Assembly (NCBI GenBank): GCA_029261055.1
Contig: JAJDCA010000071.1
Span: 89,778 to 153,777 of the forward strand
Length of the DNA: 64,000 nt
Source of the DNA: Candidatus Omnitrophota bacterium
GTDB lineage: Bacteria > Omnitrophota > Gorgyraeia > Zapsychrales > Zapsychraceae
Direction of reading: 5' to 3'
The stretch's first letter is position 1; every line of letters begins with the position of its first letter. The position numbers and the translations under genes are program-made. The notes under the pieces are model-generated. The model searched no databases. It saw only the letters and a list, made by a program, of their open reading frames with translations, and had not been told where the DNA came from. Below are positions 5,726 through 53,329 of the stretch, in pieces.

Positions 5726-6829
5726 ATGGCTCAAATTCAAATACAAAATCTTTCAAAAGTTTATAAAGGCGGCGTTAAAGCTGTTGATAATGTTAATGTA
5801 GAAGTCAAAGATAAAGAATTTATGGTTCTTGTTGGGCCTTCCGGTTGTGGAAAATCAACCACATTGCGGATGGTCGCTGGTCTGGAAGATATCAGTGAAG
5901 GTAAGATTATGATCAACGATCGTCTGGTTAATGATGTTCCAGCCAAAGATCGTGATATCGCTATGGTCTTTCAGAATTATGCCTTGTATCCGCATATGAC
6001 GGTTTTTGAAAATATGGCGTTTGGCCTTAAGTTAAAAAAATATCCTAAGCAGGAAATTGAGCGTCGTGTTCATGAAGCCACAGAAATTTTAGGGATTAAT
6101 CGTTTAATAGGCAGACGTCCTCGACAACTTTCTGGTGGTGAGCGACAAAGGGTGGCTTTGGGGCGTGCGATTGTTCGCAAGCCAAAAGTTTTTTTATTTG
6201 ATGAGCCTTTGAGTAATTTAGATGCCAAGATGCGTGTGCAGATGCGTACAGAAATCCATAAGTTACGGTTGCGTCTTCAAACGACATTTATTTATGTAAC
6301 ACATGATCAGACGGAAGCTTTGACTTTAGGTGATCGCGTTATGGTGATGAAAGATGGTAAAGTACAGCAGTGTGCGGATCCTATGACCATTTATGATAAA
6401 CCGGCAAATAAATTTGTCGCTGGTTTTATCGGATCTCCACCGATCAATTTGATGGAAGGTCGTATTATTAAAAAAGAACGAAAATATTATTTCGATGAAG
6501 GGAAGTTTAAAGTAAGAATCGTTGATGAGATGCGTAAAGTCGTTGCGCCTTATGCCGGTAAAGAAGTTACTTTTGGTATTCGTGCTGAAGATATTTATGA
6601 CAAATTATTTGTTTCCGAAGCATCCCCGGATAATACTATTCGTGCTGTATGTGAAGTTGTTGAGCCATTAGGGTCTGAAGTGTATCTCTATTTGAATACA
6701 GGAAAAAATTCATTTATCGCCCGTGTTGGCGCTCATAATAGGCCGGATGTTAATAGAGATATGGATCTCGTGTTCGATATGAGTAAGGTGCATTTCTTTG
6801 ATCGCGACACAGAAAAAACAATTATCTAA
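5726..6829 (+). CDS. ABC transporter ATP-binding protein, MalK/UgpC-type carbohydrate importer ATPase
   Basis: Walker A GPSGCGKST, ABC signature LSGGERQR, Walker B FLFDEPLSNLD, and a C-terminal TOBE-like regulatory domain. No cognate permease or binding-protein genes are adjacent. Confidence 0.85.
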   Translation: MAQIQIQNLSKVYKGGVKAVDNVNVEVKDKEFMVLVGPSGCGKSTTLRMVAGLEDISEGKIMINDRLVNDVPAKDRDIAMVFQNYALYPHMTVFENMAFGLKLKKYPKQEIERRVHEATEILGINRLIGRRPRQLSGGERQRVALGRAIVRKPKVFLFDEPLSNLDAKMRVQMRTEIHKLRLRLQTTFIYVTHDQTEALTLGDRVMVMKDGKVQQCADPMTIYDKPANKFVAGFIGSPPINLMEGRIIKKERKYYFDEGKFKVRIVDEMRKVVAPYAGKEVTFGIRAEDIYDKLFVSEASPDNTIRAVCEVVEPLGSEVYLYLNTGKNSFIARVGAHNRPDVNRDMDLVFDMSKVHFFDRDTEKTII

Positions 6830-8156
6830 AAAATTGTCTGAAAGTCATACTCTCGGACAACCTCTTAGTAATTCAACTTGCCGAAGGGGTCAACCTCCTT
6901 TTATACAGTTAACCCTCCTTTTTATTACCCTAATAGTTTTTTTTATCTACGCTACGTTTTTTAACCAGCCTTTTTTTGTTTTCATCACAATAGGTATGTT
7001 AGGATGTCTTTTTTATTTGGTGCCGTTGCGATATCACCTTGTTATGAAGGGTGCGGAAGCTCAACTTCAGGTGCAGGATTGTCACGAGAGGACAAATTTA
7101 ACGCATTCTGAGACGCATCAGGAAGGTGAAGTTATAGAGGCATTTCGAAAAAAAATTGTGAGTTATTCTAAACTTAAGGTATTAACGGAAGAGTTGAGCC
7201 TATGCCTTACTTTAGATGACACGTCTAAAACACTTTCTTCTGAGGCAAATAAACTTTTAGGTGGTCGAGAAACAACGATTATTTTGTATCTTTTTCATTC
7301 CAAAACAGGGGTGCTAGGTATTTCTTCGTCGCGTAAGGGGCAGTTACGTGTGAATATTAAATCGAAAAAAGGAGACCTCTTTGACCAATGGTTGGTTAAA
7401 AGTATGCAGCCGTTATTAGTTGAGGACACAAAAAGTGATTATCGTTTTGATATTGATAAAATTGTGACAGAAGATGCCAGGGGAATTCGATCTCTTATTA
7501 GTGCGCCGTTGATGGTGGGTAATAAAGCTTTAGGAATATTGCGCATCGACAGCCCGAAAGAAGATTATTTTACAACAGAAGATTTGCGTTTTTTAGCCAC
7601 GATAGGTGATCTCGGTGCTGTGGCTATCGAAAATGCACAGTTGTATGAGCGTGTCGAACAGTTAGCGATTAAAGATGGATTAACTCATTTGTATTTACGT
7701 CGGTATCTCATGGAGCGCATGCCAAAGGAAATGAGTCGACAGTTACGATGTAATAGTCAAATGTCTTTTTTTATGATGGATATTGATAAATTTAAACGGT
7801 ACAACGACACCTTTGGTCATATGGCAGGCGACATTGTGTTGAGAACAGTGGGTATCCTTTTGATGGATTTTTTTAAACAGCCGGGAAGTTTAGTTTGCCG
7901 TTATGGTGGAGAAGAGTTTGCTGTTATGATCCCGGATTGTCCGAAGGATAAAGCCGTTGAATTGGCAGAAAAAATACGGCAAAAGATTTCTAAACAGACT
8001 GTTTTGCTTCGACGAGAAAAAACACAGGTCACTATTTCTGTCGGGATTGCAACTTTCCCTAAAGATGCCCAGATGAAAGAAGATCTTATCCATAAAGCTG
8101 ACATGGCGCTTTATAAAGCCAAAAATGAAGGAAGAAATCGTGTGTGTGTAGCGTAA
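6798..8156 (+). CDS. Diguanylate cyclase: N-terminal TM region, GAF-like domain, GGDEF domain
   Basis: RYNDTFGHMAGD ... RYGGEEFAVMIPD (GGEEF active site) and inhibitory-site-like RxxD. Hydrophobic N-terminus. The listed start overlaps the upstream ORF by 32 nt; the true start may be downstream. Confidence 0.85.
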   Translation: MIATQKKQLSKKLSESHTLGQPLSNSTCRRGQPPFIQLTLLFITLIVFFIYATFFNQPFFVFITIGMLGCLFYLVPLRYHLVMKGAEAQLQVQDCHERTNLTHSETHQEGEVIEAFRKKIVSYSKLKVLTEELSLCLTLDDTSKTLSSEANKLLGGRETTIILYLFHSKTGVLGISSSRKGQLRVNIKSKKGDLFDQWLVKSMQPLLVEDTKSDYRFDIDKIVTEDARGIRSLISAPLMVGNKALGILRIDSPKEDYFTTEDLRFLATIGDLGAVAIENAQLYERVEQLAIKDGLTHLYLRRYLMERMPKEMSRQLRCNSQMSFFMMDIDKFKRYNDTFGHMAGDIVLRTVGILLMDFFKQPGSLVCRYGGEEFAVMIPDCPKDKAVELAEKIRQKISKQTVLLRREKTQVTISVGIATFPKDAQMKEDLIHKADMALYKAKNEGRNRVCVA

Positions 8157-8287: not shown

Positions 8288-9304
8288 ATGACTTTTTTAT
8301 TATCATTAATCATAGTTATTTTTGTTTTTCTGGTTATTCAGTGTGCTAAAAGAATAGCAAGGCAAATAGAGTTGACTGGTCGGGAAGAAATAAAGAATGC
8401 TAAAGAAGCGCATAATCAATTAATTCGGAAAAAAGAAAGTTTAAGTAAAGAAAAGTATGCTTTGGAAGGTCAAGCTTTAGAAATTTTTACTTTATATGAA
8501 ATTACAAAAGAAATTACGAAGAGTTTAAACGAGCAAGATGCCTTTGATATTTTTAAACAAAAATTAAGCTTACATACAGTCTTTGAAGAATGTCTTTTTT
8601 TGGCCCCTTCTTCGCCTTCCATTAATGAATTAAAAAAATCAGAAGAGTATTTTATTTTTACTCTCCAGGAAAAACGGAAAAAAATTGGGTATTTGGCTAT
8701 TAAAGGGGTTCCTGAACAAGACAAAGAAAAAATAATGATTTTGGGTCATCAATTTGCTTTGGCCATTAGAAGGGTTAAGCTTTATCAAGAAATAGAGAAA
8801 GTGGCTATTACAGATAGTCTAACAGAGGTTCAGACACGTCATTATGCCTTAGTCCGTTTTACTGAAGAGATCAATCGTTCAAAAGAACGTAAAATTAAAA
8901 TGTCATTTCTTATGATTGATGCAGATTTTTTTAAGAGTATTAATGATGAATATGGGCATTTAACGGGGGATCAAGTTTTAAAAGAAATAGCCGCTATTAT
9001 TAAAGAAAATATTCGGGAGATTGATATTGCCGGCCGGTACGGTGGTGAAGAGTTTTGTGTTGTCCTTCCAGATACAGATCGTGAAGGGGCTCAGTATGCA
9101 GCTGAACGTATCCGTTCTGCCACAGAGCAAGCCTTGATTAAGGCCTACGACACACAGATTAAAACAACCGTGAGTGTCGGTATAGCCACATTTCCGGAAG
9201 ATGGAAAAAGTATGGAAGAGTTGATCGATAAGGCCGATTGGGCCCTTTATCGCGCCAAAAAACAAGGACGAAACAGGATTTGTTCATTTGGGGTGTATGA
9301 GTGA
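8288..9304 (+). CDS. Diguanylate cyclase (TM / coiled-coil / GGDEF)
   Basis: N-terminal TM helix, then NDEYGHLTGD ... RYGGEEFCVVLPD (GGEEF). A tandem paralog of the upstream gene. Confidence 0.85.
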   Translation: MTFLLSLIIVIFVFLVIQCAKRIARQIELTGREEIKNAKEAHNQLIRKKESLSKEKYALEGQALEIFTLYEITKEITKSLNEQDAFDIFKQKLSLHTVFEECLFLAPSSPSINELKKSEEYFIFTLQEKRKKIGYLAIKGVPEQDKEKIMILGHQFALAIRRVKLYQEIEKVAITDSLTEVQTRHYALVRFTEEINRSKERKIKMSFLMIDADFFKSINDEYGHLTGDQVLKEIAAIIKENIREIDIAGRYGGEEFCVVLPDTDREGAQYAAERIRSATEQALIKAYDTQIKTTVSVGIATFPEDGKSMEELIDKADWALYRAKKQGRNRICSFGVYE

Positions 9305-9354: not shown

Positions 9355-9600
9355 ATGGTGAGAACACAAATATACTTAGAAGATGAACAAATATTAAAAT
9401 TAAATTTGGCATCTGAAAAGCTTAATGTGAAGAAATCAGAGTTGATTAGGTTAGCTATTGATGAATATTTCTCAAAAAAAGATAAGGACGTTAAGTGGGA
9501 AGATGACCCATTGGATAAATCTATTGGCTCGATTGAGTTAAATGTAGAAGATGCTTCAGTTAATCATGATAAGTATTTGTACGGTAATCACAATGAATAA
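9355..9600 (+). CDS. Ribbon-helix-helix (CopG/VapB-like) antitoxin
   Basis: 81-aa protein; MVRTQIYLEDEQILKL fits an RHH beta-strand/helix pattern. The strong RBS GGAGGTGA precedes the second ATG at 9355. Its stop overlaps the PIN gene start. Confidence 0.6.
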   Translation: MVRTQIYLEDEQILKLNLASEKLNVKKSELIRLAIDEYFSKKDKDVKWEDDPLDKSIGSIELNVEDASVNHDKYLYGNHNE

Positions 9601-10000
9601 AATATTTATAGATACGGGAGGATGGGTTGGTTTATTTAATAAAAGAGATAAATTCCATCAAGGTGCCAGTCAAATATATAAGAAAATTAAAGCAAATAAA
9701 TTAGAAATATATACAAGTGATTATATTATTGATGAAACAGTTACGTTAATAAAAAGCCACAGCAATTCAGATGCGGCGATAAATGCAGGTAATGCACTAA
9801 TGCGTAGCCAGCTTGTGAATATTATCAATGTAGATGCGAATATATTTAATAAAACCTGGCTAAATTTTCAGAAATATAAAGATAAAGATTATAGTTTTAC
9901 AGATGTTTCAACAATTTCCATTATGCATGAATTAAAAATAATACATTTGTTCGCCTTTGATGATAACTTGATTAATTTTGGTTTTGTAAAGTATGCATAG
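9593..10000 (+). CDS. PIN-domain toxin (VapC-like)
   Basis: MNKIFIDTGGWVGLFNKRD has the PIN D-T/S-G acidic motif. A further acidic residue lies in IDETV, and the length is ~135 aa. The start overlaps the upstream antitoxin stop. Confidence 0.7.
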   Translation: MNKIFIDTGGWVGLFNKRDKFHQGASQIYKKIKANKLEIYTSDYIIDETVTLIKSHSNSDAAINAGNALMRSQLVNIINVDANIFNKTWLNFQKYKDKDYSFTDVSTISIMHELKIIHLFAFDDNLINFGFVKYA

Positions 10001-10239: not shown

Positions 10240-13200
10240 ATGAACATCGCTATTCAAAAACAACGTACAAATTTATTTTATCGCCTCTTGTCCGCCTTTG
10301 TGGCTATGGCATTCTTAGTCACAACCATTGTGCCGACTGGTTTTGCCCAGGGCGTTATTCCATCCAGCCCTGCAACCACCCTGAACTTACCTATTCCCGG
10401 AACTATGGTAGGCATGAGTGAAGGGTTTACACCAGCGATGGTCAAGGGGCTGACAATCCACCCTGAAAATCCACTTTTGTTTGACTTTATTGTGGGAACA
10501 GGAGATACAAACTTAGATGGGGAGGCATTAAAGGAAGAATCGCGAAAATTAATTAAATATTTCCTTGCTTCTTTAACCGTGCCGGAGCAGGAAATGTGGG
10601 TTAACCTCAGCCCCTATGAAGCCGACCGCATTATTCCGGGAGGCTTGGGAGATACGGAGATGGGTCGGGATATGTTGGCTCAGGATTACCTGCTCAAACA
10701 ACTCACATCATCGCTGATGTATCCGGAGGACGAACTTGGCGAAGCATTTTGGGAACGGGTGCATGAAAGGGCTTACGAAGAATTTGGGACGACCGATATC
10801 CCGATGAATACGTTTAACAAAATCTGGATCGTGCCGGAAAAGGCTGTTGTTTACGAACATGAAGAAGATGCCAGCGCCTATGTGGTGGAGAGTCATCTGA
10901 AAGTGATGTTAGAGGAAGATTACGAAGCGTTGAACAAAAATAAAATCAACGCTGAGTCCCGAGCGACCCTCGATAATGATTCGTTGCGAGGGATTTCCAC
11001 GGAAATCATCCGTCAAATCCTTATCCCCGAAATCGAGCGTGAAGTCAATCAAGGCAAGACATTCGCCAATCTCCGCCAAATTTTCAACTCTATGATCCTG
11101 GCCACGTGGTACAAACAGAATTTAAAGCAAAGCCTTTTAGGGCAGGTGTATGTCGATCAAAACAAGACTAAGGGGGTCGACACGCAAGACAAAGCGGTCA
11201 CACAGAAAATTTATGATCAGTATATCGAAGCCTTTCGCAAAGGTGTTTATGATTACATTCGGGAAGATTACGATCCTGCCACCCAACAGATTATCCCACG
11301 CAAATATTTCTCAGGTGGGATTAAGGCCAATTTGGCTATGCTGGTTAAGCTTCAGACCATTAAGCCCGGGAATGATGTTTCCGTAGGAAATTTAGAAAAT
11401 TTGTTTTATGGGAACGAAGATACTTACAAACTTAGAACTGAGGTAACAGATTTAGGAATGGCATCAGAACCAATGGAGGTCATTAATAAAGCGGTTAAAA
11501 AAATCTCAGAATTGACAATTGAAAGTACGAAAAAAAGTGCTGGCCGTTTTAAAAGAAAGTTTGGAAAATTTAAAAAACAGGTTGTCTTTGCGTCAATCAT
11601 GACTGTCTTGTTTTTAGGATACATTCCCCTTTCATTGTACGCAAAAACATTTACTCAAGAAGAAGTGACGTCAAAATTTGCGCAGGGCATTTTAAGTCTT
11701 TCAGATCCTAATACGCGTATTCCTCCAAGTCATTTCGGCCATCCTGGATACGAAAATTTATCTTTTCTTTATGACCAAAGTATTAATCCTATGCTTCTGA
11801 AGGTCGCTGGTGATCAAGAAGAGGCAGAATATATAATTGATTATTTTACGCAAAGATTACATATCCCTTTAAGCGAAGTGATCAAGAATGCCAATTTAGA
11901 TGGAATATATGGGATATTAAAAACTTTAGAAGGGAATAAGGGCAGGAGTGAATTTGTTGTCAGTTTAATCAATGCTGTCGACCGTACGTCAACAAAACGT
12001 CAGGGACAGGGGTTGTTGGAATATTTGACAACCCCAGGGCCTATGTCTTTTATGATTCTTTCCATGATCAACGTTAATCCGGCAAAATATTTGACGGACG
12101 CTGTAACATTAGGTGAAGTTTTATTGTCTATGCGAAGATTTGACGGAGCTGTGATAGATGGTGATCGTTGGCCGAATAGAGTTCATACAGAACCCCATAT
12201 GGATGCCTTCGCTGCGTTTCTACAATTGTATCAGCTGACCCGTCAAAAACGATGGCTAGTGGCAGCTGAGCACGCCTATCAATGGTTTGAAACGAATGTT
12301 TATCATCCAGGCAAAGGTGAAATTTACCAGGGGATATGGGAAACAGGGCCAAGTACCATTTTTGCCACGGATGCGTATTCCTGGACAATGGCGGGACCCG
12401 CCGGAGATAGAATGTTTCTTGGAGATTTAGAAATATTTACAAATACAATGCTCACGAAAAGCCTTACACAGGTGACTTTAGAACTTCCCGATGGACAAAC
12501 AAAAACAATAATACTCGTTGATTTTACAGACCCGGGAAACGTGCACATGAAGATTACGGACCCTGATGCGCCTCAAGGTATGGTCGAGCGCGGAGGTTTT
12601 CATCCGATGGGCTCCATGGAATGGACCGGCGGGGTGATTCTGGCCTTACAAAAGAATGCCGTCCGGTTTTGGAATTCTGGCAAAGCGCATCATCAAGAAA
12701 CAGCCCAATTTTATAAAGGCTTGGCCGAACTTCTTATCAAAGAGTCCCTTCAGGGATTTTATGAGTTGGAAGGATTAGAAGGTTTGCTAACCTTTTATGC
12801 GACGGGACAGGGTGTGCCTGTAGGTCATGGCTGGGACACTCCTTTTTATAATGTTAATGGTAAATCCGGTCAAACTATCCGAGGAGGGAGCCCTGTTGGG
12901 GGTTGGCCGATATTACCTATGAACGGAGTGAATCCTTTCATTTTTAATGACAATTACAAAAAAGATTACGATAAGATTTCCATGAATACAGAGGCAAAGC
13001 AAAAGGCCCAAAAATATGTAAATAAAATAGTGGCGAATCGTTTTTTTCGAGAGAGTGTTCCCACAGAGACCCCGGAAGCAGCGACTCAAATTGTGGAACC
13101 GGGAAATTTTAATCTTCAAATGTGGGGGGCATTTAATAGAGGAGATTATCGAGAGGCCATTCGTTGGGCGGAAAAAGTGGTGGGTGATCCTGAATGGGTT

Positions 13201-16200
13201 CGTTTGGCGCAAAGGGATCAAAAACACAAAGCACAGAATATTGGAGGACTTGTGCGTTATAGATGGGGGGTATCACCAAGCCTAGTTCCCCAAGCAGAAT
13301 CCGCTATTTGGCGGTATCCACTCTTAAACGAGATGGGGGCGGCGATGTGGGGTCTGGCCGCTTCGCATTATGAATTAGGGAATACAAAAGAAGTTAAGAA
13401 ATGGATGCGCCGTATTATTGAGGAAATTCCATATCATCAGATTTACGCCCCCAGTGGCCCTGGGTATTGGAACGCCCTGATTTCCTGGCAATATAATCCG
13501 GGAGGACATCATCGAGATAGGAAGATGGGTGTTATTTATAAACAGGTTTTAAGCGAGATGGGCCTACGTTCTGCAGCCCCCAAAGAAGTTTCGGTTCGGG
13601 GAAAGGCATTTACTTCATCATCGAAAGATACGCAAAGGGAATCAGGTATTGAAGAAAGAGTTACGCCGCCTCATCCAAAGCTTTCTTCAGATGGATCTAA
13701 AATAGATCGAGAAATTATTTCTTATCTCCAACAGCTCACGATTGCTGATCCTCATGCAGCTAAAAATAGCCGTTCATTTAAAAGAATTGAAAATATGGGA
13801 GAGGAGGCCGTTCCTTCATTGATCAGGATTGTCCAAAAGCATGAAGTCGAAGGTGACCCGCTTAAATGGGCAGCATATCTATTGGGCGTTATTGGTGATG
13901 AAAAGGTTAGGCCGGTTATTGAAAGCATTATTAATGATTCTTCTTATCCTTGGTATGTCCACACAGAAGCAAGAAATGGGCTTAATATTTTGAAACAAAA
14001 ATATCAAGGTCAAAAGGGAGGAGACCTTGATTCTGTTGAGCCCGGAGTTGATCAAAAGGTTGTTTCTTATCTTGAACAACTGACAATTCCCGATCCTAAC
14101 GCGGCTAAGTATAGTCAGCCATTTCGGGCCATTGTAAATATGGGAGAAAAGGCTGTTCCTACGTTGATCAGGGTTGTCCAAAATCGTGAAATTGTAGGTG
14201 ACCCGCTTAAGTGGGCGGCATATTTGTTGGGGGTTATAGGAGATGAAGAAGTTGAGCCAGTTCTTCAGAGGGTTATTAATGATTCTTCTTATCCTTGGTA
14301 TGTCCAAACAGAAGCAAAGAATGGATTACGGGTATTAAACCGCAGGCTTGATAATTCCATGATGGGTATGTCCCTTCGACAGAAACTAACTTTTGTCATT
14401 GCATGGTTTCTGGTTCTATTCTCTCCGGATAATGTATCGTCTTCAAATTTGTTTGAGTCTTTACACGCAAAGAGAGCTAAGGATATTCGTGAAGAATTTC
14501 CTTACACAAAAAAGGAGTTTGAGGCAATTGTGCAGGAGGTGATGAAAGCTATTGAGAGAAAATATGTTACAGGCGCAGGGAGTAATGTAGGCATATCGAG
14601 AGTTGAAGAGAAAAGAGGGGACTTTAAATCATGGGTCATCAAACAAATTCTTTTGGTATCGGAAGGGGAAGGTGGAAAGGGGGTGGATGGAGAAAAAGAG
14701 AGTGAATCGGAAGGATATAAATCTATGTCCGATAAAGTAGAACGTATTCGTACACTGATTAAAGATGGAGAATATCAAGATGTGATTAATATTTTTGATA
14801 ATCGCTCCTCGTCCCGGTATTCTAAAAAAGGTGATGATCCTAGTATTGATGAATTATTAGAATTTGCTCCGGATCTTGTTTTAGAGTTACTGAGAAATTA
14901 TTTTGATCAAACCGTCGAATTAATTTTACGTAAAGCAGATCATGGGAATGCGATAAGTGAATTTATTAGTAGTCTGATAGAAAAGCCTGAAGGAATTCCT
15001 TTTGCCATAGATATTATACAATATCTTAAGAACAAATTTAAATTGCTGAAGAAGGTAAATGGAAGTTATCCTGTACCCGATAAGGAACCAGTTATAGTTA
15101 TGCAGAAAGGTGAGCAATTATATTCTGAGACGATTCAAAATATATTGAAGAATTTATTTTATAAAAGTAAAATAATGGGAAGTTTACAGGGAGCAAGCCA
15201 GGAATTTTATAATGCCTTGGGCAAGGAATTTGGAACAGATTGGGTGTCTTTGTGGGAGGCAAAGGTTTTGCAACCTCAGTTGAACCGTGACATTGAACAA
15301 ATGAAATTAGCGATTGCAGATACCAATTCGCAAATCTCAACTAAATTATCAACGATCGCGAAAGAATTGATTGTAGTTCCAACGGAGGTTGGGAGTAAGT
15401 TTGATAATCGGAAAGAGATGCTGGATAAGAATTTGGGAGAAATAAAACAAAATTTAAATTCTTTAAGTACGGCCTTACGCAATCAGAGCGATAAAATATT
15501 CGAAGTAACTGAGTTGAATAAGTTTGCTAACCGTGCTGATTTGCTTATTCCGTGGTTGCATGCTTATAGAGTTAATTATTATTTAAGTGGACCTATTTTT
15601 TTGGACACTTATATGAGTAATTTTTCGGAAATACGCGGGAAATTCATGCACAGGGCTTTTGAATTGAGAGAATTTGCAAGGCAAAGAGGCATTCTTGCAG
15701 ATATCGCATCATATTATATTTTTATAGAAAAGGAGATTTCTGAGTTAATAGAATTATCAAGGGATGGGAAAGATTTTGATAAAAATTCCATAACACACAG
15801 TGAGTTCTTGAAAAAAATCGGTTTAGCATATTATGAGTTTTGGGAAATAAAGGGGGAGAATAATTATTTAGGTCTTGCCGAGGATTATAAAAATCAGTTT
15901 TATGATAGGCTAGAAGAAGAAACAGGAAAGCATTATGAGAGGTTGGATGTGATTGAATTTTATGCATCTTTACAAGAAGGTTCAGATGAGCTGGGAATCC
16001 TGGCAGGGAGATTGAAAGATGATCGTGTGCAAAGTATTAAAAAAGTTTTTACTTCGGGACTTCCTCCTGTTTTTGCTGCATCGCTTGAGATCGTTAGTTA
16101 TGACCCAGAGAAAACATTGAAAGAAATAAAAGCTATTGCTGAAAAAATATTAAAAAATTACGCAATGGTGAGTAAGAAAAGTATTAAAAATTATTTGGAA

Positions 16201-16905
16201 ACAGAGGGATATGATAATCTTTTAATGTGGTTAAGGAATATCAAGAATGATAGACAACGCCCAAGGTTTATTCATGGTAGCAATACGAAAAATGTAACAA
16301 AATTATTAGAATGGTATTTTGCGCGTGAAGAATGGGAGCTCAGTAAAGAACATAAAGATGGAAACAAGGAAAAGATTTTTGAGAAGTATAAAGATATCAT
16401 TAATGATTTGGATCCTTTTAGTAAGCTGAGAATGGAGATAGTTGGGGTGTTAAAGAAAATGGGGATTAATGATTCTAATTTTATGGAACATAGAGAGTAT
16501 ATATTAGAAGTGGCGAAATCTATTCATGATGCGAGAAATGCATCGCAAGATACTGATGAGGCCATGATGGTCAATAAAGAAAATTTTGGCGGTATCAACC
16601 TTGACCCTGCCATGTTGGACTTACAAATTAAACGCGATGGCAAGGGGGTGCCGTTGCCGGTGGGGGATCAGGATTTTTCCATGATGCACATTCAAGGATT
16701 TTTGCCGATTATTATTAATGTGACGCCAGTTTCGCTGCCGGCCCTGCTTGGCTTTGTGGATACTTTACCTGGCGAACAGACGGGTTTGCCTGTGGCGAGC
16801 TCTGGTGGATTAGTGGGTGATGTTAGCTTGTGGCTTGAGGATTGGAATAGGTTCTTGCTGCGGCAGGATGACGACATTTCTGTATTAAGCCTTCGATATG
16901 GTTAA
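10240..16905 (+). CDS. Giant multidomain protein (2221 aa) of unknown function
   Basis: Uninterrupted 6.6-kb ORF. Predicted signal peptide or anchor (LLSAFVAMAFLVTTIVPTGFAQG), a TM helix near aa 445-465, two ~115-aa tandem HEAT-like repeats, and a long K/E-rich C-terminal half. The N-terminal ~320 aa and C-terminal ~100 aa are paralogous to ORF 24209-27634. Confidence 0.9.
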   Translation: MNIAIQKQRTNLFYRLLSAFVAMAFLVTTIVPTGFAQGVIPSSPATTLNLPIPGTMVGMSEGFTPAMVKGLTIHPENPLLFDFIVGTGDTNLDGEALKEESRKLIKYFLASLTVPEQEMWVNLSPYEADRIIPGGLGDTEMGRDMLAQDYLLKQLTSSLMYPEDELGEAFWERVHERAYEEFGTTDIPMNTFNKIWIVPEKAVVYEHEEDASAYVVESHLKVMLEEDYEALNKNKINAESRATLDNDSLRGISTEIIRQILIPEIEREVNQGKTFANLRQIFNSMILATWYKQNLKQSLLGQVYVDQNKTKGVDTQDKAVTQKIYDQYIEAFRKGVYDYIREDYDPATQQIIPRKYFSGGIKANLAMLVKLQTIKPGNDVSVGNLENLFYGNEDTYKLRTEVTDLGMASEPMEVINKAVKKISELTIESTKKSAGRFKRKFGKFKKQVVFASIMTVLFLGYIPLSLYAKTFTQEEVTSKFAQGILSLSDPNTRIPPSHFGHPGYENLSFLYDQSINPMLLKVAGDQEEAEYIIDYFTQRLHIPLSEVIKNANLDGIYGILKTLEGNKGRSEFVVSLINAVDRTSTKRQGQGLLEYLTTPGPMSFMILSMINVNPAKYLTDAVTLGEVLLSMRRFDGAVIDGDRWPNRVHTEPHMDAFAAFLQLYQLTRQKRWLVAAEHAYQWFETNVYHPGKGEIYQGIWETGPSTIFATDAYSWTMAGPAGDRMFLGDLEIFTNTMLTKSLTQVTLELPDGQTKTIILVDFTDPGNVHMKITDPDAPQGMVERGGFHPMGSMEWTGGVILALQKNAVRFWNSGKAHHQETAQFYKGLAELLIKESLQGFYELEGLEGLLTFYATGQGVPVGHGWDTPFYNVNGKSGQTIRGGSPVGGWPILPMNGVNPFIFNDNYKKDYDKISMNTEAKQKAQKYVNKIVANRFFRESVPTETPEAATQIVEPGNFNLQMWGAFNRGDYREAIRWAEKVVGDPEWVRLAQRDQKHKAQNIGGLVRYRWGVSPSLVPQAESAIWRYPLLNEMGAAMWGLAASHYELGNTKEVKKWMRRIIEEIPYHQIYAPSGPGYWNALISWQYNPGGHHRDRKMGVIYKQVLSEMGLRSAAPKEVSVRGKAFTSSSKDTQRESGIEERVTPPHPKLSSDGSKIDREIISYLQQLTIADPHAAKNSRSFKRIENMGEEAVPSLIRIVQKHEVEGDPLKWAAYLLGVIGDEKVRPVIESIINDSSYPWYVHTEARNGLNILKQKYQGQKGGDLDSVEPGVDQKVVSYLEQLTIPDPNAAKYSQPFRAIVNMGEKAVPTLIRVVQNREIVGDPLKWAAYLLGVIGDEEVEPVLQRVINDSSYPWYVQTEAKNGLRVLNRRLDNSMMGMSLRQKLTFVIAWFLVLFSPDNVSSSNLFESLHAKRAKDIREEFPYTKKEFEAIVQEVMKAIERKYVTGAGSNVGISRVEEKRGDFKSWVIKQILLVSEGEGGKGVDGEKESESEGYKSMSDKVERIRTLIKDGEYQDVINIFDNRSSSRYSKKGDDPSIDELLEFAPDLVLELLRNYFDQTVELILRKADHGNAISEFISSLIEKPEGIPFAIDIIQYLKNKFKLLKKVNGSYPVPDKEPVIVMQKGEQLYSETIQNILKNLFYKSKIMGSLQGASQEFYNALGKEFGTDWVSLWEAKVLQPQLNRDIEQMKLAIADTNSQISTKLSTIAKELIVVPTEVGSKFDNRKEMLDKNLGEIKQNLNSLSTALRNQSDKIFEVTELNKFANRADLLIPWLHAYRVNYYLSGPIFLDTYMSNFSEIRGKFMHRAFELREFARQRGILADIASYYIFIEKEISELIELSRDGKDFDKNSITHSEFLKKIGLAYYEFWEIKGENNYLGLAEDYKNQFYDRLEEETGKHYERLDVIEFYASLQEGSDELGILAGRLKDDRVQSIKKVFTSGLPPVFAASLEIVSYDPEKTLKEIKAIAEKILKNYAMVSKKSIKNYLETEGYDNLLMWLRNIKNDRQRPRFIHGSNTKNVTKLLEWYFAREEWELSKEHKDGNKEKIFEKYKDIINDLDPFSKLRMEIVGVLKKMGINDSNFMEHREYILEVAKSIHDARNASQDTDEAMMVNKENFGGINLDPAMLDLQIKRDGKGVPLPVGDQDFSMMHIQGFLPIIINVTPVSLPALLGFVDTLPGEQTGLPVASSGGLVGDVSLWLEDWNRFLLRQDDDISVLSLRYG
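13720..14345 (+). repeat. 345-bp (115-aa) tandem repeat inside the giant ORF encoding HEAT-like units
   Basis: SYLQQLTIADPHAAKNSRSFKRIENMGEEAVPSLIRIVQ...GDPLKWAAYLLGVIGDEKV...SSYPWYVHTEARNGL is repeated as SYLEQLTIPDPNAAKYSQPFRAIVNMGEKAVPTLIRVVQ...WYVQTEAKNGL. The second copy is partial. Confidence 0.85.
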
Positions 16906-24208: not shown

Positions 24209-27200
24209 ATGTTTTTTTTAGAAAATAACCGCAAAAATGGTTTGTATCGTGTATTTTCAGTATTTTTAGTATTTGCATTCATATTTACCAGTATTATTCC
24301 TCCTAGTTATGGGCAAAATGCTCCACAAACTATATTAAATTTACCTATTCCAGGGGCATTTGTGTCATCTACCGATGTATTTTATCCGGCGATGGTTAAA
24401 GGTATAACCCTCCACCCTGAAAATCCGTTGCGGTTTGATTTTGTGGTGGATACTGGTGCAACTGGCATGAAACGAGCGGATGTATTAAACGCAGAAATTA
24501 CCAAGCTAGTGAAATATTTTTTGGCTTCGTTGACAGTTCCCGAGAAAGAAATGTGGGTCAACTTGAGTCCCGATGAGCCGGACCGAATTATTGCCGAAGG
24601 GCTTGGTAGAACGGATATGGGGCGGGATATGTTGGGGCAGGATTATATGCTCAAGCAGCTTACCGCAAGTTTGATGCATCCGGAAGAAGATTTAGGTCAA
24701 GAGTTTTGGAATCGTGTTTACGCCCGTGCGCAAGCCGAATACGGAACGACCGATATTCCGATGGATACCTTTCACAAAGTCTGGATTGTACCCGAGAAGG
24801 CCGTCGTGTACGAGCATGAAGAGACGGCCACGACGTATGTGTTAGAGAGTAGGTTGAAGGTTATGTTGGAGGAAGATTATCTCGCCGCGTCCAATAACGT
24901 AGGGGCGAATCCACGTATTCGCCCAAATCAAGGGCGAAAACAGGGTTTCGCCCCTACGACATCCATCATCCGTGAAATCCTCATCCCCGAAATCCAACGC
25001 GAAGTCAACGAAGGATCAACTTTCGCCAATCTCCGCCAGATCTACCATTCAATGATCCTCGCCGCGTGGTACAAACGAAGCCTGAAACAGTCTCTGCTTG
25101 GCCAAGTCTACGTCGACCAAAACAAAACCAAAGGCATCACCACCGAAGACGAACACGTTACGCAAAAAATTTACGATCAATATATTGAATCCTTCAAAAA
25201 AGGCGTTTACGACTACATCAAAGAAGATTACGACCCAACGACAAATCAAATCATCCCCCGCAAATACTTCTCCGGTGGGTTTGCCGCGGATTTCTCGATA
25301 TTGCGCGCATTAAAATCATCAATTACCAGGATAGCCCCCACTCAAATATTTTCAGACGAAGACAACGCCATCCTAAGCGCCCAATTCGATTTAGCAAGTT
25401 TGGGAAAAAAGACTGATCTATCCTTTTTGGACTCAGCCATGAAGACGGAGCGAGAAGCGTTGAAGAAAGCTCTACGGAAAAAAGTTGTGCAGAATTTTAA
25501 AGGGTTACAGGGTAAAGGTCATATTAATATTTTGTGGGTCGAAGATGACGAAGAATTGACTGATGCATATAAAAAAGAGCTAGAAAATGATAAATATAAA
25601 ATAGAGTGGATTAAAAGTGGAGAAGACGCTTGGCAATATGTCCGGAATAATTATGCAGAAATTGACCTTATTATTACGGATTTAGACTTAGATGGAGAAA
25701 TGTCAGGATCAGATTTAATTGATGAGTTAAACAATGAAAAAAATAACGAAGTGTCTATCATTCCTATCCTTATACTAACAGCAGGGCAAGCTGTAGGGGC
25801 CTTAAGGGGGCCTTTAAAAAGAGCTACGAATAATTTTATCGAAATTTTTCGAAAGGTTGGAAGAATTAGCGAATATATAGCAAAAGTCAAAAATTTCATC
25901 GAAAATCCTCCGGATGATTTGTCGATGATGGTTAGGGGGGGTAATAAGGGGGGTGGAATAGATTTTTTTAAGGTGAGCGGAGAGGTAAGAAAAAAAATAT
26001 ATCAATTAAAAAATCAATATGCGGATACGACGGATTATACGATTACACAAGGCACTTTTGGGTATTCAAGAAAAGAGAATAGTAATAAAAGTTTTGTGGC
26101 GATTACCCCTGATGATTCAGGAAATAGTTTGATTTATGTTCAGCAGGAAAGAGGGAGGAAAGTTTTTGTGTTTCAGGGGCGTGTGCCTAGTGAGTCTGGT
26201 CTTTCAGCGTGGGAACCTGAAGGAAGGCAGATACAAAGCGTGAAAGAGGTGGAGATTGCCTTAGAGGATTTTATTCGAGGACGAAAATCTAAATTAGCAG
26301 AGGAAAAACTTAAGACGGAGGCGCGTGAAAAAGAATTGGATGCTCTTGCGAGAGAAGAACGTATACAAGACAAGCAAGACAATCCTCTTGCTTCGGTTGC
26401 AGAGATTTTTACAGAAATGAATCCCACAAAAAAAGAACATAAATATACCGTTATAACGGTAAAAGGAGAAGTTTCTTATGAAGGATTTGTGTATGAAAAA
26501 AAACCTTATCCAGGCGCCGATGAGATGTATTACGGCTTAGTTGCCTACCAGTATTACGATGAGATTTATATCAAGAAGGGATATATTAAAAAAAGATTTT
26601 TTAATGAATTGGGTCCTGAAGCAGATCCTTATTATTCACTTTTTCCGCATGAAAATTTGACGGAAAAAGTATATTGGGCTCTTGATAATATAGATCAACA
26701 AAAGGTTCAGGGCATCATTAAAGAATTTATTGAAGAGCAAGATGTTCTACGTAATCAGCCTGAAAAGGAAATAGAGTTTGTGAAAATTCAGCCTTCAAAT
26801 GAAAAGAGGGAAAAAAAGGTTCGAAATGTTAAAGGTGATGTTCCGAAGAAAAAGATTGTGAATATGAATAAAATTAAAAAGGATCTCGAGGCAGGCCGTA
26901 TCGCAGAGGTATTACAAGATTTTAAGGAGGATGAGTTTTACGCTATAAAAGGTTTTTTTATAGACGAAAAAGACCGAGACGAAAATGCTTCTTCTGTCGG
27001 TAATTCTATTGGTTGGCTATTTGTTTATTTTCTGGAATACCTTCGCAATGAATATGCCGGTTTTGAGTATCCAAAGTATATAAAAATAGGATACAACCTA
27101 AATAAAGTAAGTGGTGATGATGAAAGTAGCTTTATGAGTGAGTTTTATGAGGGGGTTGAAGAGTACTTAGAAAAATATAAGGCTCCTTTACAAAAATCTA

Positions 27201-27634
27201 ATTTTTTAGATAAAAATCCTTTAGGAGATAGGAAAAAGTATGCTCTTGCAGATAATCATCCATATATAAATATTAGAAAGTATTTTCAATTTGTAGACGA
27301 GGCAATGTTAAATATAGACGATAAGAAAAGCCTTGGCGGGATTAACTTGGACGCGGCGATGTTGGATTTGCAGGTGAGACGTGATGGTAACGGAGTGCCG
27401 TTGCCGTTTTCATTGCAGCCGGCGGATTTGGGGATGCGGGTTCAGGGGTTTTATCCGATTCTCAACAGTGTGACGCCAGTCACTTTGCTGCAGCTTGGAT
27501 TGAATAGTCCAGTTGGTGCGCCTCCACCGGAAGATGCTTCCTCTGCGAAAGATGCGTCTACCTTTCTGGATTTAAGCTATTCCTTCACCACCAAAACCCG
27601 CGATCCGTGGGATAGGGTTATATTTTATGTATAA
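24209..27634 (+). CDS. Giant-protein paralog (1141 aa) with an embedded CheY-like receiver domain
   Basis: Signal peptide or anchor, then a ~320-aa module about 65-70% identical to the N-terminus of ORF 10240-16905. A receiver-like segment (ILWVEDDEELTD...LIITDLDLDGEMSG...IPILILTA) spans about 25525-25870. A coiled-coil K/E-rich region follows, then a C-terminal module shared with the first giant ORF (GGINLDAAMLDLQVRRDGNGVPLP...). Confidence 0.9.
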   Translation: MFFLENNRKNGLYRVFSVFLVFAFIFTSIIPPSYGQNAPQTILNLPIPGAFVSSTDVFYPAMVKGITLHPENPLRFDFVVDTGATGMKRADVLNAEITKLVKYFLASLTVPEKEMWVNLSPDEPDRIIAEGLGRTDMGRDMLGQDYMLKQLTASLMHPEEDLGQEFWNRVYARAQAEYGTTDIPMDTFHKVWIVPEKAVVYEHEETATTYVLESRLKVMLEEDYLAASNNVGANPRIRPNQGRKQGFAPTTSIIREILIPEIQREVNEGSTFANLRQIYHSMILAAWYKRSLKQSLLGQVYVDQNKTKGITTEDEHVTQKIYDQYIESFKKGVYDYIKEDYDPTTNQIIPRKYFSGGFAADFSILRALKSSITRIAPTQIFSDEDNAILSAQFDLASLGKKTDLSFLDSAMKTEREALKKALRKKVVQNFKGLQGKGHINILWVEDDEELTDAYKKELENDKYKIEWIKSGEDAWQYVRNNYAEIDLIITDLDLDGEMSGSDLIDELNNEKNNEVSIIPILILTAGQAVGALRGPLKRATNNFIEIFRKVGRISEYIAKVKNFIENPPDDLSMMVRGGNKGGGIDFFKVSGEVRKKIYQLKNQYADTTDYTITQGTFGYSRKENSNKSFVAITPDDSGNSLIYVQQERGRKVFVFQGRVPSESGLSAWEPEGRQIQSVKEVEIALEDFIRGRKSKLAEEKLKTEAREKELDALAREERIQDKQDNPLASVAEIFTEMNPTKKEHKYTVITVKGEVSYEGFVYEKKPYPGADEMYYGLVAYQYYDEIYIKKGYIKKRFFNELGPEADPYYSLFPHENLTEKVYWALDNIDQQKVQGIIKEFIEEQDVLRNQPEKEIEFVKIQPSNEKREKKVRNVKGDVPKKKIVNMNKIKKDLEAGRIAEVLQDFKEDEFYAIKGFFIDEKDRDENASSVGNSIGWLFVYFLEYLRNEYAGFEYPKYIKIGYNLNKVSGDDESSFMSEFYEGVEEYLEKYKAPLQKSNFLDKNPLGDRKKYALADNHPYINIRKYFQFVDEAMLNIDDKKSLGGINLDAAMLDLQVRRDGNGVPLPFSLQPADLGMRVQGFYPILNSVTPVTLLQLGLNSPVGAPPPEDASSAKDASTFLDLSYSFTTKTRDPWDRVIFYV

Positions 27635-27706: not shown

Positions 27707-27934
27707 ATGGTTCGATTAAATATTACTATGCCGGAAGATTTGGATCAGCGGTTAAGGAGGGTCAAAAATAAGAGTCGTTTTATTGCCTTAGCCGTGAGGG
27801 AGAAGTTTCAAAAAGAAGAAAAAGCAAAGTTGCAGGCTTTGATGATTGAAGGGTATAAAGCGATGGCAGCAGAAGATCAGGACATTAATCAAGAATGGGA
27901 AGAAACAATGCTGGAAGATGGGTTGGATTTATGA
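27707..27934 (+). CDS. RHH/MazE-like antitoxin
   Basis: 75-aa protein with a strong RBS. MVRLNITMPEDLDQRLRRV fits the ribbon-helix-helix pattern. Its stop overlaps the downstream toxin start (ATGA). Confidence 0.55.
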   Translation: MVRLNITMPEDLDQRLRRVKNKSRFIALAVREKFQKEEKAKLQALMIEGYKAMAAEDQDINQEWEETMLEDGLDL

Positions 27935-28278
27935 AAGTTCCCTCCCGTGGTGAAATTTGGTTGGTTAATTTTAATCCAACAATTGGGGCGGAAATAAAGA
28001 AAACACGCCCGGCTGTTATTGCCTCTAATGATTTGAATAATCAGTACGCGCAGACAGTGACCGTTTTACCTATTACAGATAAAGGAAAAAAAGTTTATCC
28101 TTTTGAAGTCTCTTTATCCTCTCAGACAAAAGGTCTTGTTAAAGATTCCAAAATTAAATGCCAACAAATCCGAACGATCGATAAGAGACGATTAGTCAAA
28201 TTTATCGGCGTTGTAAATGAAAAAAGTTTGCAGGATATAGATAAGGCCTTGAGTATTCATTTGGGAATGTTGCGTTAA
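27931..28278 (+). CDS. MazF/PemK-family endoribonuclease toxin
   Basis: RGEIWLVNFNPTIGAEIKKTRPAVIAS...TVLPITDK matches the MazF/PemK fold signature. The start at 27931 overlaps the antitoxin stop. Confidence 0.75.
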   Translation: MKVPSRGEIWLVNFNPTIGAEIKKTRPAVIASNDLNNQYAQTVTVLPITDKGKKVYPFEVSLSSQTKGLVKDSKIKCQQIRTIDKRRLVKFIGVVNEKSLQDIDKALSIHLGMLR

Positions 28279-43303: not shown

Positions 43304-44938
43304 ATGAATGATAAATCAATCAAAATTGGACAAGAGTTGCTGGAGAGAAGGCTCATATCTCAAGAACAGCTACTTGAGGCGCTCAGTATTCAGAAAGAAG
43401 ATAAGAGAATGCTGGGTCAAATTTTACTTGCGCAAGGGTTTCTTTCCGATGAAGCATTAACAGAAGCTTTGGCTGATATTTATCAAATACCTTTTATCAA
43501 TTTAAACCAAGCTAAGATTGATCAATCCGTCATCGATTTAATTCCTATTGACATTTTAAGACGCCACAATGTTTTACCAGTTCGGTTAGAAAATCAAAAC
43601 CTTTTTATTGCCATCCATGATCCTCTTGACCTTTCCGCTATTCAAGAAATTCAATATATCACAGGACATCAGCCCCAGCTTTATCTTGCAACATTAAAAG
43701 ATATTTGCACGCATTTGGATAAGTTTGTCGATACTGTGCATACCCTCCACGGGAGCAGGGAGCAAGCTCACACGGACGATGATGATGTTCCGGTTATTAA
43801 TTTGGTGGATTCTATTATCAGTTCGGCGATCACAGAGCGAGCTTCCGATATTCACCTGGAACCTCAAAAGGATAATATGCGTGTCAGGTTTCGGATAGAC
43901 GGGACGCTTTATGAAAAGAATTTAGTTACAAAGACTTTACAAAGGCAAGTTATCTCGCGTCTTAAAATTATTTCAGGTATGGATGTGACGGATACCAGGC
44001 GACCTCAGGATGGGCGTTTTACACCAGAAAAATATCCTCAGTATAATTGTAGGGTGTCTACTCTTCCGGATATACTTGGTGAAAATATGGTTATTCGTCT
44101 TTTAAACCGTAATACCACGGCTTTGTCCTTTGAAGAATTAGGGATGAGCCCTGAGGAAACGCATAAGATAAAAACTTTATCTGCATCTCCTCACGGCATT
44201 ATTCTTCTCACAGGGCCAACCGGAGCCGGTAAGACCACGACACTCTATTCTATCCTTAATTTTCTTAATCAAATCGAAAAATGCATTATCACGGTTGAAG
44301 ATCCTGTCGAATACCAGTTACCCGGAATTAATCAAACAAATATTAATAATCTTGCCGGATATAGCTTTGCTTCAGCCATTAGAAATATTTTACGCCATGA
44401 TCCGGATATTATTATGATAGGTGAAATTCGTGACACAGAAACAGCTGAAATTGCGATACGCGCAGCACTGACAGGCCATCTTGTTTTGTCAACATTGCAT
44501 ACGAATTCGGCGGCTGGTGCCATTATGCGTTTGTTGGACATGAATATTGCTCCTTTTCTTTTAAGAGCCTCTTTGATCGGCGTCATTGCACAGAGGTTAG
44601 TGAGAAGGCTTTGTCCTCATTGTCATACAGAATATGAAGCGAGTGATGACATTTGCCATTCTATTGAGGGTTCAATTTCTCCTGGGGCCACGCTTGCCTC
44701 TGCAGGGCAGTGCGAAAAATGCTTTCAGACCGGATTCCACGGGCGCGTGGGGCTTTATGAAATTCTTCAGATTAATGACCCTATTCGGGAACTTATTTTG
44801 GAGTCGCCCAACAAAGAGGCCATTACAAAATTGGCTGTTTCTCAAGGAATGAAAACATTAAGGACAGCTGGATATAATAAAGCTTTAGCCAAATTGACCA
44901 CGCTGGAAGAAGTGCTGAGCATCACGGGTACAGAATAA
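43304..44938 (+). CDS. Type II secretion / type IV pilus assembly ATPase (GspE/PilB family)
   Basis: N-terminal GSPII_E_N-like domain, Walker A GPTGAGKTTT, Asp box, Walker B, His box, and the tetracysteine CPHC...C..C motif. Confidence 0.9.
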   Translation: MNDKSIKIGQELLERRLISQEQLLEALSIQKEDKRMLGQILLAQGFLSDEALTEALADIYQIPFINLNQAKIDQSVIDLIPIDILRRHNVLPVRLENQNLFIAIHDPLDLSAIQEIQYITGHQPQLYLATLKDICTHLDKFVDTVHTLHGSREQAHTDDDDVPVINLVDSIISSAITERASDIHLEPQKDNMRVRFRIDGTLYEKNLVTKTLQRQVISRLKIISGMDVTDTRRPQDGRFTPEKYPQYNCRVSTLPDILGENMVIRLLNRNTTALSFEELGMSPEETHKIKTLSASPHGIILLTGPTGAGKTTTLYSILNFLNQIEKCIITVEDPVEYQLPGINQTNINNLAGYSFASAIRNILRHDPDIIMIGEIRDTETAEIAIRAALTGHLVLSTLHTNSAAGAIMRLLDMNIAPFLLRASLIGVIAQRLVRRLCPHCHTEYEASDDICHSIEGSISPGATLASAGQCEKCFQTGFHGRVGLYEILQINDPIRELILESPNKEAITKLAVSQGMKTLRTAGYNKALAKLTTLEEVLSITGTE

Positions 44939-46371: not shown

Positions 46372-46456
46372 ATTTGATAAAGGTAAACCATTTGAGAGAA
46401 TGGGACACAAAGCCAAGGACCCTGAGCGCTAGATTCAGGGCAGCCGGTTGCCAAAG
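46372..46456 (+). ncRNA. c-di-GMP-I (GEMM) riboswitch aptamer
   Basis: GGTAAACCATTTGAGAGAATGGGACACAAAGCC... aligns almost base-for-base with the Vc2 GEMM core GGCAAACCATTCGAAAGAGTGGGACGCAAAGCC. P2 hairpin CCATT-GAGA-AATGG has a GNRA loop. P3 hairpin is CCCTGA...TCAGGG. Confidence 0.75.
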
Positions 46457-51050: not shown

Positions 51051-51060
51051 GGCGGGACAG

Positions 51061-53319: not shown

Positions 53320-53329
53320 GGGGCGTAAG

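Follow-up and report, generated by a model that had tools for sequence, protein, structure and literature searches.

A CheY-type receiver domain as one of many exchangeable cassettes in an Omnitrophota protein family with predicted export signals

The closest described counterparts of the protein treated here are the giant proteins of Omnitrophota, which contain CheY-like receivers, GGDEF, and PP2C domains, and whose genes adjoin type II secretion system (T2SS) and pilus loci (West-Roberts et al., bioRxiv 10.1101/2023.11.21.568195). A survey of proteins of at least 10 thousand amino acids (kAA) located the receiver family PF00072 in 105 of them, where it was grouped with starch synthase, phosphoglucomutase (PGM), radical SAM, and ROK domains, and reported a signal peptide or transmembrane (TM) helices in 94% of such proteins (bioRxiv 10.64898/2026.06.07.730766). 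Here we describe a 1141-aa protein with a CheY-type receiver behind a predicted Sec signal peptide, which is encoded in a 64,000-nucleotide stretch of a Candidatus Omnitrophota genome (GCA_029261055.1, contig JAJDCA010000071.1, forward-strand positions 89,778 to 153,777). This whole stretch is called the window below, and nucleotide positions are counted from its first letter. A receiver inside an Omnitrophota protein that bears an export signal is not new in kind. What a preliminary description of this DNA missed is that the receiver is not peculiar to one protein, but is one of many exchangeable cassettes. That the receiver forms a junction-delimited cassette of a modular Omnitrophota family is the descriptive part of our reading, and it is held with high confidence.

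The segment in question lies in an uninterrupted reading frame of 1141 aa, 24209–27634 on the + strand, in which a predicted, cleavable-looking Sec signal peptide, an N-module of approximately 340 aa, the receiver, an orphan region of 455 aa, and a proline-rich C-module of approximately 60 aa follow one another. Its parts are as follows.

24209..27634, + strand: family-member gene, 1141 aa, identical to database protein P0001; solitary, with a 306-nt intergenic region upstream
24209..24313, + strand: predicted Sec/signal peptidase I (SPase-I) signal peptide, aa 1–35, with basic R8, K9, and R14, a hydrophobic core, Pro-Pro, and SYG|Q36
24314..25333, + strand: N-module, aa 36–375, the constant N-terminal domain, which ends at an invariant KYFSGG
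25427..25444, + strand: junction motif 1, LDSAMK, aa 407–412, upstream of the receiver cassette
25529..25894, + strand: CheY-type receiver domain, aa 441–562, from Pfam, NCBIfam, PDB, and MAFFT alignments
25913..25930, + strand: junction motif 2, DDLSMM, aa 569–574, followed by GGGIDFF
25931..27292, + strand: orphan middle region, aa 575–1028, with a coiled-coil-like stretch and no Pfam, NCBIfam, or PDB match
27293..27310, + strand: junction motif 3, VDEAML, aa 1029–1034, just ahead of the C-module
27335..27508, + strand: C-module core, aa 1043–1100, GGINLDAAMLDLQVRRDGNGVPLP...VQGFYPILNSVTPVTLLQLG, with a variable tail to 27631

The receiver was recognized by the Pfam model Response_reg (PF00072) over aa 441–529, with an E-value of 7.8e-12 and a score of 45.8 bits against a gathering cut-off of 30.2. 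This local alignment ends at position 82 of the 111 of the profile. Two NCBIfam models run further, of which MtrA (NF040689) aligns aa 441–562 and TIGR01387 aligns aa 441–561 to their positions 1–111, and the PDB receivers 3t6k, 3cfy, and 3h1g align equally far, through α5. Since the NCBIfam models, the PDB receivers, and the MAFFT alignment all extend past the local PF00072 match, β5 and its Lys are present. Altogether, 21 PDB receivers matched at E < 0.01, and the nearest solved relative by sequence is 4q7e_A. The CheY-like receiver fold that had been placed at 25525–25870 was hence found there, but the start was one base off; 25526 is in frame, and 25525–25870 read as given contains many stops. 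The end lies beyond 25870, at approximately nt 25894, where the alignments reaching α5 stop.

The catalytic residues were assigned in a MAFFT alignment of 10 sequences, consisting of the studied receiver, CheY, PhoB, Spo0F, and six receivers from related family proteins.

25541–25546, + strand: E445/D446, equivalent to D12/D13 of CheY; PhoB likewise has E-D
25679–25681, + strand: D491, equivalent to D57 of CheY, the phospho-acceptor
25778–25780, + strand: T524, equivalent to T87 of CheY
25853–25855, + strand: K549, equivalent to K109 of CheY, within EIFRKV

D446, D491, and K549 are invariant in all 10 sequences, in which only one other invariant column, a Leu, was observed. Val takes the place of the usual Pro after K549, and the aromatic switch residue is displaced to the second position before the Lys (K-2). 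In the pairwise phmmer alignment to 3cfy, the Lys column falls on I547, two residues ahead; the assignment to K549 was preferred because the relatives show the pattern N-x-x-x-x-[FL]-x-K(P). The D-D-D-T-K set is complete, and the check proposed in the preliminary description, a comparison with the Response_reg hidden Markov model (HMM), gave a match above the curated threshold with Asp and Lys retained, the Lys by way of the multiple alignment. The segment is neither a degenerate pseudo-receiver nor one that fails to score. The seven family receivers in the alignment all keep D, D, T/S, and K at a mutual identity of just 27–33%, whereas the N-modules of the same proteins are 55–65% identical. 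The phospho-residues are kept despite the low receiver identity, which therefore indicates that phospho-chemistry is under selection, and the pattern suggests a fast-diversifying payload in which this chemistry is still used. Judged from these alignments, the segment is a genuine and complete CheY-type receiver with an intact phospho-acceptor pocket and is apparently phosphorylatable. As a domain it has nothing out of the ordinary; what is unusual is where it sits.

The preliminary description was also right that no HTH or other output domain follows, as Pfam, NCBIfam, and PDB sequence searches found no known output domain and the residues after the receiver gave no match in any of the three. 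The orphan region would be the only candidate for a receiver-controlled output; its sole detectable relative is a stretch of P0003, another receiver-bearing protein, with 28% identity over 240 aa. The receiver and the orphan region may also be independent of each other, given the cassette design.

Searched as a whole against the database, the protein had more than 4,265 significant matches, to all of which the N-terminal third is common, and the named sources of these matches are only Candidatus Omnitrophica/Omnitrophota or metagenomes. When the N-module alone was searched with phmmer against 1.84 billion cluster representatives, 8,008 representatives at 50% clustering were obtained, including 6,250 at E ≤ 1e-30. 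In the 150 best of these 8,008, the N-module is located nearly always at approximately aa 35–370 and usually in a single copy, in proteins of 420–4,969 aa. Among the species genomes of GTDB, 62 loci were found, all in metagenome-assembled genomes (MAGs) of Omnitrophota, each genome holding several copies (e.g., 7 or more in UBA10174 and 5 or more in nzgw314); the source contig itself carries at least 6 family members. Many of the GTDB family records (L005, L009, L018–L021, and others) are titled "uncultured Planctomycetales bacterium", which is probably wrong because all other sources named for the family belong to Omnitrophota. The architecture thus very probably represents a very large family, restricted to Omnitrophota, with no fewer than 8,000 clusters at 50% identity.

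One paralogue lies in the window.

10240..16905, + strand: paralogue, 2221 aa, with the same signal peptide, N-module, and C-module and with HEAT-repeat cargo

Its N-module is 63% identical over 372 aa, which bears out the shared N module that had been noticed earlier, and the C-terminal stretch GGINLDxAMLDLQ..RDGxGVPLP is common to both proteins. Throughout the family, the constant ends are 55–65% identical and the middles are freely exchanged. According to precomputed Pfam annotation of the 120 best matches, Response_reg occurs in 9, and other signaling, regulatory, or scaffold cargo comprises GGDEF, HTH, DnaJ, PP2C, metallophosphatase, HEAT, and ankyrin domains. Sugar-phosphate and storage metabolism is represented by UDPGP, phosphoglucomutase, glucose-6-phosphate isomerase (PGI), phosphoglycerate kinase (PGK), eukaryote-type hexokinase, FBPase, PEPCK, starch synthase, and PfkB, and further enzymes in the same 120 proteins are glutamate dehydrogenase, acyl-CoA dehydrogenase, and radical SAM with a B12-binding domain. 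The cargo enzymes that were checked are full length and score strongly, such as hexokinase (172 + 179 bits) and PGK (221 bits). We are therefore confident, as far as domain annotation can tell, that the middle is made up, with few exceptions, of domains whose usual place of work is the cytoplasm. The position of the receiver varies between members, yet it always lies between junction motifs and ahead of the same C-module. Some cargo is typical of eukaryotes, as P0063, P0115, P0041, and others carry Hexokinase_1/2 and UDPGP (PF01704) and not the bacterial glucokinase or GalU types. A free-standing ROK kinase and a GAPDH are also encoded in the window.

The receiver can be regarded as a discrete cassette because LDSAMK (aa 407) and DDLSMM (aa 569) bracket it. 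The pattern D-x-[AS]-M-[MLVI] occurs 156 times in the 120 proteins against 7.9 ± 3.1 in shuffled sequences, and a second form, [AST]-S-S-P-[VIL] is 35–56-fold enriched, with 43–56-fold for the strings SSPV, ASSP, and SSSP. These motifs are located at the edges of Pfam domains with a median spacing of 242 aa. In P0113, for example, DAAMM at 1300, the receiver at 1316–1422, DSAML at 1438, and the C-module at 1455 follow one another, and P0041 has the order DTSML, UDPGP, DAAML, PGM, DSSML. In the window, 8 motif matches were counted in the 3,362 aa of the two family proteins versus 1 in the 15,950 aa of 45 other open reading frames (ORFs). The two forms are near-exclusive within a protein, since 50 proteins have only DxAM, 40 only SSP, and 3 both (Fisher p = 1.7e-10); the form is uniform within a contig, and a third group uses looser ASSS/AASP variants. 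Such genome-specific dialects suggest, at the level of sequence, a functional site that evolves together with a factor in trans, e.g., a protease or a binding partner. The Bacteroidetes O-glycosylation sequon D-[ST]-[AILVMT] was considered as the identity of the motif and rejected, as most junctions do not fit it. A 4,952-aa protein beside another family member (L064 1-5311) has SSSP[VLA] approximately every 300 aa and no C-module at its end, which shows that junction motifs also occur outside the family with N- and C-modules.

The protein had been described as starting with a secretory signal or anchor and lacking an obvious second TM segment, and both statements stand. By Kyte–Doolittle hydropathy and sequence rules, aa 12–30 form a hydrophobic, signal-peptide-like segment (2.18), and the only other segment above 1.6 is β4 of the receiver, IIPILILTAG, which is no TM helix. 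Among the 82 family leaders with a strict hydrophobic core, 76 have x-[AGS]|Q after the core, with the Gln at +1 nearly invariant. The family leaders carry a net charge of +3.1 ahead of the core and of 0.0 behind it, have a median predicted length of 36 aa, and usually contain Pro-Pro. The core is also conserved in sequence (YRxLSAFIAxxF, with F24 nearly invariant). LptD and the secretin of the same window have ordinary leaders of like form. Other leader types do not apply, since the G|F...E5 pattern of a type IV prepilin-like leader is absent and its Gly is missing in other members, and a lipoprotein is excluded by a leader without Cys. The leader displays every feature of an SPase-I substrate, and the protein is probably Sec-exported.

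The two constant modules were further examined by AlphaFold2 (AF2) modeling. The N-module, which has 47 invariant columns across 120 members, was predicted from a 60-sequence alignment with a predicted local distance difference test (pLDDT) of 75.6 and a predicted template-modeling score (pTM) of 0.76 as an α+β fold with two long β-hairpins and six long helices. It has no Pfam or NCBIfam model; Foldseek gave no significant match in PDB or among the BFVD viral models, and the family profile matched nothing among PDB sequences. The best Foldseek matches, ClyA-type toxins and colicin Ia, are noise (E ≥ 0.1, TM approximately 0.1). The possibility that the N-module is the protease that cuts the junctions was rejected, as the invariant columns include neither a His/Cys/Ser triad nor HExxH, and the "DTG" of this protein is not conserved. 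The C-module has the consensus GGIxLxPxxLDLQIKRDGxGVPLP...GFxPVIINxTP...LLG and is found no more than approximately 100 residues from the C-terminal end in 113 of 121 members, a rule that is valid up to approximately 5 kAA. Modeled alone from a 61-sequence alignment, it showed hardly any secondary structure (pLDDT 63.7, pTM 0.27), and on this model it is read as an extended docking or sorting peptide that forms no autonomous domain. A type IX secretion system (T9SS) C-terminal domain, an autotransporter barrel, and a PEP-CTERM or sortase-type signal were each tried for it and rejected, as it shows no fold and lacks both a basic C-terminal tail and an aromatic residue at the terminus.

With the receiver being one of many exchangeable cassettes, the question moves from what a response regulator regulates to what the carrier architecture does. 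Receivers are classical switches of the cytoplasm, yet the present one, apparently functional, follows a canonical export signal. Either export signals mean something else in Omnitrophota, or phospho-signaling and nucleotide-dependent enzymes leave the cell. We tentatively favor, as a possible answer, that the constant ends are a device for export, anchoring, or delivery and that the middle is a payload working in another cytoplasm, namely that of a prey or host. The Sec leader would export the protein from the producer cell, the N- and C-modules would keep it on the surface or translocate it, and the junction motifs (D-x-A/S-M-φ here) would be putative processing or hinge sites. The payload would then act in the cytoplasm of a cell that serves these ultrasmall epibionts or predators as host or prey, where D491 might be phosphorylated by acetyl phosphate or by a kinase of the target compartment, and the adjacent orphan region would thereby be switched on. 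Since the work of the payloads depends on ATP, UTP, GTP, phosphodonors, DNA, or Fe-S assembly, another cytoplasm would be their most likely site of action; action in another cell, taken by itself, is somewhat doubtful. Omnitrophota are largely ultrasmall epibionts with at least one predator (Seymour et al. 2023, PMC10066038), and for an Omnitrophota predator, predator RNA is reported to occur inside the dead prey cells (PMC13153191). The T2SS/type IV pilus-like cluster of the window, with its secretin, likewise counts in favor of this reading, as loci of that kind are reported to adjoin giant Omnitrophota genes. Hexokinase is present in 25 and PGI in 67 of 176 complete Omnitrophota genomes (bioRxiv 10.64898/2026.06.07.730766), a patchy spread that fits accessory cargo over housekeeping. 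The PGK-fused members are not in gap-pgk operons, which is uninformative either way as to a housekeeping or an extra copy.

Several observations weigh against delivery into another cell. Sec exports unfolded chains, and cargo that depends on cofactors, e.g., radical SAM/B12, would have no activity in a periplasm. We know of no route into another cell for these proteins, and the N-module resembles no translocon, toxin, or secretion domain at a significant level. No histidine kinase or Hpt was found near the gene, histidine kinases being absent among the window ORFs scanned, and no conserved neighbor such as a protease, transporter, or immunity gene occurs within ±3 kb of the 62 loci. The delivery reading may be carried further, in that the family would be a phylum-specific delivery platform with junctions cleaved in the target cell and the receiver would be an "arrival sensor" for the phosphodonors of the target; we consider this extension unlikely. 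If true, it would amount to a new effector-delivery principle and to the first receivers working in trans in another organism.

The cargo is explained best by the opposite topology, an uncleaved anchor, which the preliminary description rightly set against an extracytoplasmic receiver. The leader would then hold the protein in the inner membrane with its bulk in the producer's own cytoplasm, and the N- and C-modules would form a sub-membrane scaffold, e.g., with C-module peptides bound to neighboring N-modules, that concentrates sugar-metabolic and signaling domains. An unlinked, ordinary histidine kinase would phosphorylate the receiver, which would regulate the orphan region or the assembly. 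Such a tether agrees with the cytoplasmic nature of all cargo types that can be identified and with their dependence on nucleotides, phosphodonors, DNA, or Fe-S clusters, with the retention of the phospho-residues in the receivers, and with the resemblance of the C-module to an extended docking peptide. Many long Omnitrophota proteins have likewise been read as inner-membrane-anchored with cytoplasmic content (bioRxiv 10.64898/2026.06.07.730766). The conserved core sequence YRxLSAFIAxxF, which is unusual for a disposable signal peptide, points the same way, but it is no more conserved than the adjoining N-module and may merely reflect recent paralogy. The drop in net charge across the core, from +3.1 to 0.0, predicts an N-in/C-out orientation with the bulk outside, and no second TM segment returns the chain to the inside. 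Furthermore, a helix-breaking Pro-Pro and the conserved small-x-small|Q site lie past the core in the 76 of 82 leaders mentioned above. In view of these topological features, we regard a cytoplasm-facing tether as rather unlikely.

If the protein is exported and stays in the periplasm or on the cell surface, the receiver fold could be a metal- or ligand-binding or dimerization module without a phospho-switch, and the enzyme-like cargo of the relatives could be binding modules or moonlighting surface proteins. The signal-peptide features, the diderm envelope genes and the secretin in the window, and the lack of a kinase nearby are compatible with an envelope resident, as are Val for Pro after the Lys and the aromatic switch residue at K-2, which are mild departures from canonical receivers. 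However, the acidic pocket, Thr, and Lys are kept in 7/7 family receivers at approximately 30% identity, which is a pattern of selection for phosphotransfer; the cargo enzymes are complete and strong-scoring, not degenerate, and the cargo list is not dominated by envelope-type domains. An envelope resident is hence improbable in our view. That a normal response regulator was joined to a secreted neighbor by mis-assembly, by a frameshift, or in gene calling was considered since the source is a metagenome-assembled genome; nothing specific speaks for it. The ORF is uninterrupted, an identical protein exists in NCBI on a 242-kb contig, and the receiver architecture recurs in 9 of the 120 closest members at varied positions, which effectively refutes an artefact and leaves it a negligible chance.

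The remaining features of the window concern cyclic di-GMP (c-di-GMP) signaling and toxin–antitoxin genes.

6798–8156: GGDEF gene with GAF
8288–9304: GGDEF gene
46372–46455, + strand: c-di-GMP-I riboswitch, 61 bits
27707–27934 and 27895–28278: RHH-like/MazF toxin–antitoxin pair directly downstream of the receiver gene, with its own promoter-like site

The two GGDEF genes and the riboswitch that had been noticed in the window were thus located. The second-messenger/phosphorelay-controlled envelope function proposed from them found no support: the GGDEF genes lie approximately 15 kb upstream and the riboswitch approximately 19 kb downstream, where it fronts a pilin-like gene, the window ORFs scanned yielded no histidine kinase, and a link between c-di-GMP signaling and the receiver is unsupported. 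A T2SS/type IV pilus (T4P)-like cluster with a secretin occupies 43–55 kb, 16 kb downstream of the receiver gene. The riboswitch is approximately 90 nt upstream of a type-IV-pilin-like gene of this cluster (46548–46967, N_methyl motif), and the cluster ATPase (43304–44938) carries MshEN, a c-di-GMP-binding domain; c-di-GMP may accordingly control a single pilus or secretion machine through an RNA as well as through a protein, to judge from these annotations. The ORFs 50977–53319 and 53300–53824 of the cluster have the prepilin-like N-termini GFSLTEMIVG and GFTLMEMVVV, and one prepilin-like ORF of 780 aa with a CarboxypepD_reg domain is unusually large for a pseudopilin. Toxin–antitoxin genes flank family genes at several loci. 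A PIN gene (9551–10000) lies just upstream of the 2221-aa paralogue, and a MazE-like pair (L064 9438–9976) lies ahead of another family member.

Compared with the receiver domains of two-component systems, the studied receiver has the (βα)5 fold and is alignable with them end to end. It differs in that it sits behind a Sec-type signal peptide and a 340-aa module of no known family, has Val instead of Pro after the Lys, and belongs to a protein with neither a DNA-binding or enzymatic output of a known family nor a nearby cognate kinase. T9SS cargo of Bacteroidota combines a conserved C-terminal sorting domain with a Sec leader after which Gln is often the +1 residue (the "Q-rule"). The present family is similar in its Sec leader, with a near-invariant Gln past the predicted cleavage site, and in a conserved C-terminal module on unrelated cargo. 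However, its C-module has no Por_Secre_tail or TIGR04183 match and no β-sandwich in the AF2 model, and the family has an extra constant N-module and cytoplasm-type cargo; we know of no T9SS in Omnitrophota. One relative, P0095, carries PF18962. MARTX toxins of Vibrio have conserved ends that flank exchangeable effectors acting in the cytoplasm of another cell and separated by processing sites (PMC5218395, PMC4453568, PMC6315884). The likeness is an analogy only, as the studied protein lacks glycine-rich RTX-type repeats and a cysteine protease domain (no Pfam/NCBIfam match), has an N-terminal Sec leader instead of type I secretion, and has far shorter ends with no similarity in sequence or fold.

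The giant Omnitrophota proteins remain the nearest system. They come from the same phylum and share the cargo repertoire of starch synthase, PGM, hexokinase, radical SAM, HEAT, GGDEF, PP2C, and CheY-like receivers, and they mostly have a signal peptide or TM helices and T2SS/pilus loci nearby, as does the studied protein. Their tiling of enzyme and regulatory Pfam domains, including PF00072, behind such an N-terminus is also seen here. In contrast, the giants have at least 10 kAA and are mostly unique in sequence, whereas the present protein, at 1141 aa, falls short of that length and is a member of a sharply delimited set of paralogues in which N-module and C-module are constant. Term searches of the two giant-protein preprints and of other, incompletely covered literature found no description of this architecture of N-module, C-module, and junction motifs. 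The family, for which Pfam and NCBIfam have no model, hence provides a compact, alignable handle of 1–2 kAA on the unexplained giant multi-enzyme proteins of Omnitrophota, with concrete features in a predicted cleavage site before Q36, the junction motifs, and putative docking by the C-module.

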